Virus record (IMG/VR): IMGVR_UViG_2534682157_000011
Coordinates: 1-8,008 of that record
Source of the DNA: a virus
Taxonomy: Duplodnaviria; Heunggongvirae; Uroviricota; Caudoviricetes
Length of the DNA stretch: 8,008 nt
Strand: one strand, 5' to 3'
Part shown: positions 1,874 to 2,770 of the stretch, piece by piece
How the letters are laid out: the number at the start of each line of letters is the position of its first letter
How positions within the stretch are numbered: the stretch's first letter is position 1
Program-made: the position numbers and the translations under genes
Notes under the pieces: model-generated
The model's input: only the letters and a program-made list of their open reading frames with translations
Databases searched by the model: none
What the model was told of the DNA's origin: nothing

Positions 1874-1927
1874 AAGATAAAATGAAATTGCGCATTATGC
1901 AAGTGTTTTGTTGCGAGATGCGCAATA
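1874..1927 (-). promoter_or_regulatory. Candidate leftward early promoter (pL-like) with TGCGCA-type operator palindromes
   Basis: Minus strand: -35 TTGCAT (rc of 1897-1902), 17-nt spacer, -10 TATCTT (rc of 1874-1879). The heptamer TTGCGCA occurs at 1888-1894 (+) and as rc at 1920-1926; TTGCG-N5-CGCAA lies at 1911-1925. The same motif family recurs between cI and cro. Confidence 0.3.
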
Positions 1928-1938
1928 TGATGGGTGAT

Positions 1939-1960
1939 GAAAAGCCACCTTCTGGTGGCT
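1939..1960 (-). terminator. Probable intrinsic terminator of the repressor gene
   Basis: Minus-strand hairpin AGCCACC-AGAA-GGTGGCT (7-bp stem, 4-nt loop) followed by TTTC, about 20 nt downstream of the cI stop codon (1983-1981). Confidence 0.45.
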
Positions 1961-1980
1961 AATTGATGAGGAGGTCGGGG

Positions 1981-2673
1981 TTAATTGTGTCGCTTAAGGG
2001 TTTGTGACTGACTGATTAAGACCTTCCCAAAGACCATAAACCGGTGTTCGTTTTCGCTGGTAATTCCCCATTCACGGTAAATCTGGTTATCAGAAATCAC
2101 CAGTAGTTTGTCAGGTATCATTTGCAGTCGTTTGACATAAATTTTATCATCAAAACCAAACACATAGATACCATCCCCATCAAACTGATTGATACTGATA
2201 TCAACGAAGATGAGATCTCCTGGCTCAATGGTTGGACACATACTGTCCCCACGAACGTTGATAACTTTAATGTGATTGGCTGGTCGTCCTCCAAACATCG
2301 ATACAGCATTATCAGTTATGTATTCAATGGCATGAATCACATCAATGACATCACCGCCCTGGATAAGGCCATTTCCCGCACTGGCACTGACATCCAGCAT
2401 TTCAATACGGAATACATCCTTCACCTGCGCAACATCCTCACCAGTACTGTTTTTACATACAGTATTACTTTTGAAGTCTGAGGTAAAGAGATCTGCAATA
2501 TCAACACCTAAGCTCCTGGCAATATTACTCAGGGCTTGTTCAGTGAATTGTTTCTGCTTACCTGTTTCCAGGCGTGAGATATTCGCCGCATCCACTCCTA
2601 TTGCTTCAGCGAGATCGGCGATTTTCATGTTCTTCGCCTGGCGAAGTTGTCTGACTCGATTTCCTATGTTCAT
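1981..2673 (-). CDS. CI-type phage repressor: N-terminal HTH (XRE family) plus C-terminal S24 LexA-like autopeptidase
   Basis: 230-aa ORF. N-terminus RVRQLRQAKNMKIADLAEAIGVDAANISRLETGKQ is a typical HTH. C-terminus carries the S24 signature VRGDSMCPTIEPGDLIFVD (catalytic Ser) and IYVKRLQ (Lys), with an Ala-Gly site (SASAGNG) in the linker. Transcribed divergently from the cro-like gene. Confidence 0.9.
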   Translation of the reverse strand: MNIGNRVRQLRQAKNMKIADLAEAIGVDAANISRLETGKQKQFTEQALSNIARSLGVDIADLFTSDFKSNTVCKNSTGEDVAQVKDVFRIEMLDVSASAGNGLIQGGDVIDVIHAIEYITDNAVSMFGGRPANHIKVINVRGDSMCPTIEPGDLIFVDISINQFDGDGIYVFGFDDKIYVKRLQMIPDKLLVISDNQIYREWGITSENEHRFMVFGKVLISQSQTLKRHN

Positions 2674-2770
2674 GCGTTTATTACATTTCTTTATTGCGCG
2701 TTAAGCAAATCAACTTGCGCAAAATATTTGCGTGAAATAATATGCTTATCACGCAATATGTGGAGGTTAT
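2674..2770. promoter_or_regulatory. Divergent promoter/operator region (pRM-like leftward, pR-like rightward)
   Basis: Rightward: -35 TTGCGC (2715-2720), 17-nt spacer, -10 TAATAT (2738-2743), then SD GGAGG (2762-2766) before ATG 2771. Leftward: possible -35 TTGCTT / -10 TGTAAT ending about 7 nt before the cI ATG (near-leaderless, as for lambda cI). Palindromes: CGCAAA-ATA-TTTGCG (2718-2732) and TTGCGTGA-N13-TCACGCAA (2728-2756), the latter spanning the -10. TTGCG(C/T) half-sites also at 2694 and 2715. Confidence 0.6.

Follow-up and report, generated by a model that had tools for sequence, protein, structure and literature searches.

Which DNA sites does the repressor of a lambdoid immunity region recognise, and do they lie on both sides of its own gene? 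This question is raised by an 8,008-nucleotide (nt) stretch of DNA from a virus of the class Caudoviricetes (IMG/VR virus record IMGVR_UViG_2534682157_000011, positions 1 to 8,008; hereafter the window), in which a cI repressor gene and a cro-like gene diverge and related palindromes are found on either side of cI. An initial annotation of the sequence proposed the heptamer TTGCGCA and its close variants as candidate operators on both flanks. What recurs is a 15-bp dyad, WTGCG-N5-CGCAW (W, A or T; N, any base), rather than the heptamer, and its four strong copies, two to the left of the cI terminator and two between cI and cro, are highly likely on sequence grounds to be the cI/Cro operators of this immunity type, which is common to the phages mEp460, 1720a-02 and SfII. 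The arrangement belongs to the classical lambdoid kind of switch. The novelty lies in the immunity type, since the literature searched, which did not include the ST64B genome paper, contained no operator description for mEp460, 1720a-02, SfII or ST64B, nor one of the palindrome TTGCGCAA discussed below.

The gene set is that of a lambdoid switch. The repressor is a protein of 230 amino acids (aa) with an N-terminal helix-turn-helix (HTH) domain (Pfam HTH_3, 1.1e-10) and a C-terminal S24 domain (Peptidase_S24, 1.2e-18), and the residues of LexA-type self-cleavage (Ala99-Gly100, Ser144 and Lys181) can be read in its translation, from which cleavage is predicted. The divergent cI and cro genes are separated by 97 bp. 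Among solved structures, a variant of the 434-repressor N-terminal domain (1sq8, E 2e-4) is nearest to the DNA-binding domain and UmuD' to the C-terminal domain; P22-type c2 repressors are approximately 41% identical by tblastn. In several database records the repressor is given as 215 aa with a start at Met16, which would remove helix 1 of the HTH. Because residues 1-15 are conserved from Met1 across genera, the 230-aa start is the better call.

All sequences quoted in the initial annotation, including TTGCGCATTATGCAA, TTGCGAGATGCGCAA, TTGCGCGTTAAGCAA, TTGCGCAA and TTGCGTGA-N13-TCACGCAA, were found where it had placed them. Exact copies of the heptamer did recur (six against 2.0 expected), and four of the six were located in the two regulatory stretches, but the claim did not extend to close variants, as copies with at most one mismatch were no more frequent in the window than expected (36 found, 34 expected). 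The heptamer was dropped as the unit in favour of the 15-bp dyad for this reason. TTGC-N7-GCAA occurs four times in the window against an expectation of 0.32, and none of 200 shuffles reached four. Three of these copies are the two left dyads and the cI-proximal right dyad (dyad A), and relaxing the outer positions to W added the cro-proximal one (dyad C) to the set (Table 1). The pentamers TTGCG and CGCAA are likewise concentrated, with 8 of the 34 in the window falling within 172 bp of regulatory DNA (binomial P ~5e-7). The symmetrised consensus reads W-T-G-C-G-n-A-W-T-n-C-G-C-A-W; an operator consensus for this immunity type, as had been suggested, can be defined, in the corrected form WTGCG-N5-CGCAW.

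A weight matrix built from other phages only, with the window excluded, scored the four dyads at 19.4-22.8 bits. Across the whole 47-kb genome of phage 1720a-02 the same four were the only strong matches, and the next best reached 9.5. The two control regions thus share one motif that is rare in the rest of the phage. An unbiased scan over gaps of 0-12 for each of the 256 4-mers returned TTGC-N7-GCAA as the sole dyad flanking cI on both sides in nine of nine diverged loci. No match to the LexA box CTGT-N8-ACAG was found in 1874-1925 or 2694-2806.

Homologous immunity regions were fetched from the phages SfII, ST64B, 118970_sal3, phiNP, mEp460 and Klebsiella phage Kp4871-1, and from eight bacterial genomes (Shigella, three Citrobacter, Pseudescherichia, Klebsiella, Buttiauxella and Trabulsiella). 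Their cI proteins were 67-98% identical, and twelve regions were scored with the matrix; a genome scan for distant loci gave only eight, and a viral scan gave near-identical loci only. Whether the motifs might be absent from such regions had been named as a point on which the operator proposal could fail. Dyads of the consensus type, with centres at +28/+29 and +76/+77 relative to the cI ATG, were present in 12 of 12 homologs (13 of 13 loci), and both left dyads, at approximately -755 and -778, were kept in 10 of these homologs. Of the other two, a Pseudescherichia locus lacks the left dyads and a Klebsiella spallanzanii locus has a single one; both loci are apparently rearranged or truncated on the left. 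The left dyads are 23 bp apart from centre to centre, and 22-24 bp apart in the homologs. In the alignments the arms (TTGCG, and GCAA or CGCAA) are invariant and the central five to seven bases vary freely. Homologs with the recognition helix (V/I)D(A/G/S)AN(I/V)SR(L/V)ETGKQK all retain TTGCG arms. Among 80 viral contigs with a cI 97-100% identical to that of the window, the left region exists in 44 distinct versions, which differ at dyad positions 5-11 and in the spacer (8 or 9 bp), while the outer arms are almost unchanged. Rare arm variants (TTGTGAGATGCGCAA, TTGTGATATATGCAA and TTGCGCATTATACAA) were seen in the left control region of these IMG/VR loci (L016-L095); they resemble operator mutations and could mark weakened repression.

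Conservation also bears on the longer dyad TTGCGTGA-N13-TCACGCAA (2728-2756), which was likewise part of the early proposal. It exists and spans the candidate -10 of the rightward promoter (2738-2743), and it might be the functional site at this promoter, with 29 bp bound by a tetramer or by two dimers. Its 8-bp arms are perfect, it is kept in all fetched loci whose cI is at least 97% identical, and its half-site TTGCG at 2728 also occurs in SfII and Citrobacter FP75. The complete dyad is confined to those close relatives. It is missing from SfII and from ST64B, phiNP, Kp4871, C. amalonaticus, Buttiauxella, Trabulsiella and K. spallanzanii, and the last seven keep the recognition helix together with the 15-bp dyad at +76. 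Nor does it have an equivalent on the left side. It was rejected as a conserved operator, and we consider it improbable that it is the functional site; the conserved right-hand site over the predicted rightward start would be dyad C.

Further evidence for the 15-bp dyads as repressor sites comes from natural swaps in heteroimmune relatives. In phage cdtI, three stretches of the window have a counterpart, 201-1407 (97.5%), 1641-1846 (98%) and 3000-4194 (93%), and positions 1847-2999 are replaced by an unrelated repressor and cro. The replacement carries dyads of a different sequence, TGTA-N9-TACA, one to the left and two to the right of the repressor gene. The CII-like gene (cII/YmfL) is outside the swapped cassette and is retained in cdtI at 93% identity; since the dyads change while this gene stays, they belong to cI and cro. 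The swap begins at 1847, so the left candidate operators are part of the exchangeable immunity cassette. In Fels-1, whose repressor is 52% identical, the recognition helix reads DVGNISRLERG against DAANISRLETG here, and the dyads are ATGT-N7-ACAT in the same 15-bp geometry, three on the right and two on the left. The cdtI/e14-type (YmfK) and Fels-1 regions thus resemble the window in gene order, in flanks and in the equivalent placing of dyads to the left and right of the repressor gene, but differ in the arms, and their recognition helices differ to match. Operator sequence shifts with the repressor in both relatives. Fixed positions, genome-wide uniqueness and change with the repressor together support the original idea that one repressor would act via related operators at the left and right control regions.

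Both cI and cro lie inside the swapped cassette, so this covariation cannot separate the two proteins, and the dyads might be sites for Cro only, with cI recognising something else, for example the invariant 8-bp palindrome TTGCGCAA between dyads A and C. No dyad is as conserved as this central palindrome. However, it is absent from the left side, which cI must also control. In addition, the recognition helices of the two proteins align closely (DAANISRLE in cI, NPATLSRIE in Cro; BLASTP of the cI N-terminal domain against Cro, E 6e-5), which fits the use of the same sites by both, and to our knowledge cI and Cro share operators in all lambdoid switches studied. Sites for Cro only are therefore less probable still than the long dyad, and the 86-aa Cro very probably uses the same four dyads as cI.

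Candidate promoters can be placed around the dyads. A leftward promoter (pL), a rightward promoter (pR) and a promoter for cI (pRM) were assigned because their hexamers are invariant, or nearly so, with fixed spacing. Each has a 17-bp spacer, and the conserved hexamers overlap the dyads. The cI terminator sits between cI and the left dyads, which follow immediately beyond it. Equivalent terminators were called in ST64B, phiNP and C. amalonaticus and are annotated in SfII. As first noticed, the left dyads adjoin a leftward promoter-like element, and this candidate proves to be conserved. Predicted starts are near 1867 for pL and near 2750 for pR, and dyad C begins inside the pR -10 and covers the predicted start. 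The pRM -10 ends 7 nt upstream of the A that begins the cI ATG, this start codon lacks a Shine-Dalgarno sequence, and the chances that pRM would give a leaderless cI mRNA appear about even. Taken as a whole, this map of pL, pR and pRM is somewhat more probable than not to be right.

These elements suggest how the switch would operate if the dyads are cI/Cro operators. A cI dimer would set one HTH on each TTGCG arm, and the left pair, at a distance of about two helical turns, could hold two dimers side by side. The promoter-proximal left dyad would provide the -35 of pL, so that cI bound there would block this leftward early promoter. On the right, cI on dyad C would cover the -10 and start of pR and thereby shut off cro and the replication genes. 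Dyad A would provide the -35 of pRM, and excess cI or Cro at this site would turn cI transcription down; pRM itself would probably start at the cI AUG. Upon induction, RecA-stimulated self-cleavage at Ala99-Gly100, as predicted from the conserved residues, would remove the dimerising C-terminal domain and free all sites.

The coincidence of three arms with candidate -35 hexamers could also mean that the palindromes bind no specific protein and are RNA hairpins, weak terminators or -35-like hexamers that are palindromic by chance. A terminator scanner indeed flags some homologous dyads that precede T-rich DNA. The stems, however, are only 4-5 bp long, and fixed arms, a free centre and a constant length of 15 bp are the pattern of a dimeric DNA-binding protein. 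The motif also switches with the repressor type, and the left dyads would hardly be transcribed, since they are located upstream of the predicted pL start and past the cI terminator. We regard this explanation as very improbable. Equally poor is the prospect that the CII-like activator (YmfL/CP76 family) encoded next to cro binds the repeats, by analogy with lambda CII, which binds TTGC-N6-TTGC: the tetramer resembles the lambda CII half-site and the gene is adjacent, but the repeats here are inverted with a 7-bp gap rather than direct with a 6-bp gap, and cdtI keeps cII at 93% while the dyads are replaced along with cI and cro, so this candidate was rejected.

Several points weigh against the dyads as cI/Cro operators, or against parts of the model built on them. 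The core of the matrix was set by the pattern used for collecting sites; the unbiased 4-mer scan serves as an independent check and mitigates this. The comparative data cannot tell cI from Cro. The candidate promoters share only 7-8 of 12 positions with the sigma-70 consensus, and a consensus promoter scanner called none of the three. Its only call in the control region was a leftward one (2764..2737) that is unconserved in the homologs. The 48-bp spacing of the two strong right sites does not agree with the adjacent cooperative binding of lambda, and the model leaves both the invariant TTGCGCAA and a dyad inside cro unexplained. In the literature searched, neither binding or footprint experiments nor mapped transcript starts came to light for a member of this immunity type.

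The right-hand layout departs from that of lambda. Dyads A and C are approximately 4.6 helical turns apart and are not adjacent. Between them, the sequence ACTTGCGCAA includes the central palindrome, which holds a back-to-back pair of half-sites and may serve as a third, non-canonical site. Candidates for a canonical site at this central place are good in some lineages only: 15-mers built on ACTTGCGCAA reach 16.0 bits at +42 in C. amalonaticus and 15.2 bits at +49 in Kp4871, whereas those at +42 and +49 in the window score below 9. A possible fourth site lies within cro. The corresponding dyad at +126/+127 is degenerate in the window but reaches consensus quality in phiNP, Buttiauxella, K. spallanzanii and C. 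amalonaticus. The Pseudescherichia locus, which has no recognisable cro start, retains this dyad too, although coding constraint may lie behind the conservation. This locus, from a metagenome-assembled genome, keeps the right dyads and has an extra consensus dyad, TTGCGCGTTACGCAA, on the cro side at a distance of 920 bp; the prophage is rearranged or decaying.

Such a layout may be read in another way, as a different design rather than a compacted lambda right operator. Dyads 48-50 bp apart, at +28, +76 and +126, would each guard one element around the palindrome at the pR -35. The palindrome could then be a non-canonical site for the repressor, Cro or a host factor that sets the switch, and repression might work by looping to the left pair approximately 820 bp away instead of by cooperativity between neighbours. 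This design is an unlikely, though not a far-fetched, account of the right-hand region.

With the four dyads as cI/Cro operators, the closest comparison is with known lambdoid switches. Lambda has 17-bp sites, three per operator, with the left sites 24 bp apart, 2.3 kb between oL and oR, and a leaderless cI mRNA. The window shares with lambda the divergent cI and cro, one dyad family on both sides of cI, an S24 self-cleaving repressor and a left pair spaced by about two helical turns, 23 bp against 24 bp in lambda. The operators would also overlap pL, pR and pRM as in lambda, and a leaderless cI mRNA may be made here too. The differences are a site of 15 bp rather than 17 bp, two left sites where lambda has three, and on the right two strong sites at a distance of 48 bp in place of three adjacent ones; a clear counterpart of OR2 is missing, and oL and oR are separated by only approximately 820 bp rather than 2.3 kb. 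The pattern of three adjacent sites per operator, as in lambda, 434 and P22, was not found on either side. The initial comparison with lambda is supported as regards related operators flanking cI; the number and spacing of sites are not the three plus three of lambda.

In phage 434 the operators are 14 bp long (ACAA-N6-TTGT), again with three adjacent sites per operator. Short operators, arms of 4-5 bp and a non-contacted centre that varies between sites are features in common, and the closest solved structure is a 434 variant; the arm sequence and the odd length of 15 bp are different. According to our own mapping from the alignment, Gln28, Gln29 and Gln33 of 434 correspond to Ala, Ala and Arg here. 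We know of no lambda, 434 or P22 operator that the arm sequence and 15-bp length would match. The operators of the Stx2 (Shiga toxin 2) phage 933W are the subject of Tyler, Mills and Friedman (2004, J Bacteriol 186:7670), and its left operator reportedly has two repressor sites only. Both are Shiga-toxin phage switches, and two left sites would be a further common feature. The repressor and operator sequences are unrelated, and binding is experimental in 933W but predicted here.

The cassette is not restricted to one phage. Positions 1200-3600 of the window are 100% identical to Escherichia phage 1720a-02 (KF030445), whose switch this is, 99.8-99.9% identical to the Stx2a phages Stx2a_1447 and WGPS2, approximately 97% identical to mEp460 and approximately 90% identical to Shigella phage SfII. 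More distantly, the repressor region of Salmonella phage ST64B is approximately 74% identical. Among 5,426 complete Escherichia coli genomes, 929 have a place covering at least 80% of 1200-3600. Such coverage requires the cassette, and the immunity cassette is therefore common. Phage 1720a-02 is the Stx2dact phage in the Citrobacter rodentium mouse model of disease by enterohaemorrhagic E. coli; lethality in this model depends on RecA-dependent prophage induction, and RecA is required for induction and Stx production from the phage (bioRxiv 10.1101/348706).

The value of the operator assignment is mainly practical, as it gives a testable consensus for a widespread Stx-phage immunity type with an unusual right-hand layout. 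Together with the promoter map, the consensus can be used to design non-inducible or virulent mutants, to build repressor-controlled reporters and to predict cross-immunity between prophages. The natural specificity variants with TTGCG, ATGT and TGTA arms are good material for studying how HTH repressors change their target.

Table 1. Coordinates of dyads, candidate promoters, genes and RNA elements in the window (promoters and binding sites are predictions)
Feature	Position	Strand	Remarks
Left dyad, promoter-proximal, TTGCGCATTATGCAA	1888..1902		Exact TTGC-N7-GCAA; 22.8 bits, best match of homolog-only matrix; at approximately -778 from cI ATG in 10/12 homologs
Left dyad, promoter-distal, TTGCGAGATGCGCAA	1911..1925		Exact TTGC-N7-GCAA; 20.3 bits
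Right dyad A, TTGCGCGTTAAGCAA	2694..2708		Exact TTGC-N7-GCAA; 19.4 bits; arms invariant; +28/+29 from cI ATG in 13/13 loci
Right dyad C, ATGCTTATCACGCAA	2742..2756		ATGC-N7-GCAA; 20.8 bits; found once outer positions are W; +76/+77 from cI ATG in 13/13 loci
ACTTGCGCAA, including 8-bp palindrome TTGCGCAA (2715-2722)	2713..2722		Invariant in 10/10 sequences
Orphan half-site TTGCG in pR spacer	2728..2732	+	Left arm of 29-bp dyad; also in SfII, Citrobacter FP75
Possible fourth site, cro codons 8-12, GTGCGTAAGGCGCAC	2792..2806		Degenerate here; 5.9 bits
Candidate pL -10, TATCTT	1874..1879	-	GATAA core invariant or nearly so in 10-sequence alignment; 4/6 consensus positions
Candidate pL -35, TTGCAT	1897-1902	-	Right arm of 1888-1902; 17 bp from -10
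Candidate pRM -10, TGTAAT	2680..2685	-	ATTACA invariant in 10/10 aligned homologs
Candidate pRM -35, TTGCTT	2703-2708	-	cro-side arm of dyad A; 17 bp upstream of -10
Candidate pR -35, TTGCGC	2715-2720	+	Invariant in alignment
Candidate pR -10, TAATAT	2738..2743	+	17 bp after TTGCGC; TAA-AT invariant, fixed spacing in 10 homologs
cI terminator	1936..1960	-	Hairpin AGCCACC-AGAA-GGTGGCT (1943-1960), then T run; fold -12.3 kcal/mol, z -4.0
cI repressor, 230 aa	1981..2673	-	N-terminal HTH, C-terminal S24 self-cleaving domain; Pfam, translation
cro-like gene, 86 aa	2771..3031	+	HTH_3; Pfam
CII-like protein	3024-3575	+	CP76/YmfL family; Pfam
Exchangeable immunity cassette	1847..2999		pL and its operators, terminator, cI, right operators, cro; cdtI comparison
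isrK copies	3931-4007, 4791-4867, 5639-5715		Rfam
C4 copies	4032-4119, 4892-4979, 5739-5826		Rfam

Other features of the window concern the early transcripts and the genes beyond cro. On the minus strand, the 671 nt downstream of the candidate pL (1203-1873) contain no convincing open reading frame (ORF), no Rfam family and no tRNA. This leader folds better than shuffled sequences (z -3.3), and a boxA-like element, CGCTCTTTTTA (1339-1349), is followed directly by a 25-bp hairpin (1251-1339), with the first leftward gene just beyond. Parts of the leader have homology to a P1-like plasmid, beside tRNA genes. A role in antitermination or as a processing leader is possible; mEp phages depend on Nus, and no N gene was seen.

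Beyond the CII-like gene, three tandem modules at 3918-6429 each combine an isrK small RNA, a C4 antisense RNA and an ORF for a Rha/Ash-family antirepressor (Rfam, Pfam). Phage 1720a-02 has one antirepressor gene. The best places for this array in complete E. coli genomes span approximately 2.2 kb or 1.4 kb against 3.1 kb for the query, and so suggest a copy number of two or one. Two exact matches to CTGT-N8-ACAG, a count not above chance for the window, are found at 3675-3690 (CTGTAAGTAACCACAG), between cII and the first antirepressor module, and at 2447-2462, inside cI. An antirepressor under LexA control would resemble the arrangement of the Gifsy phages. Tandem repeats of 24 bp x 2.7 and 12 bp x 2.5 at 6957-7066, within the replication-initiator gene (6647-7465), are probably origin iterons by analogy with lambda O.

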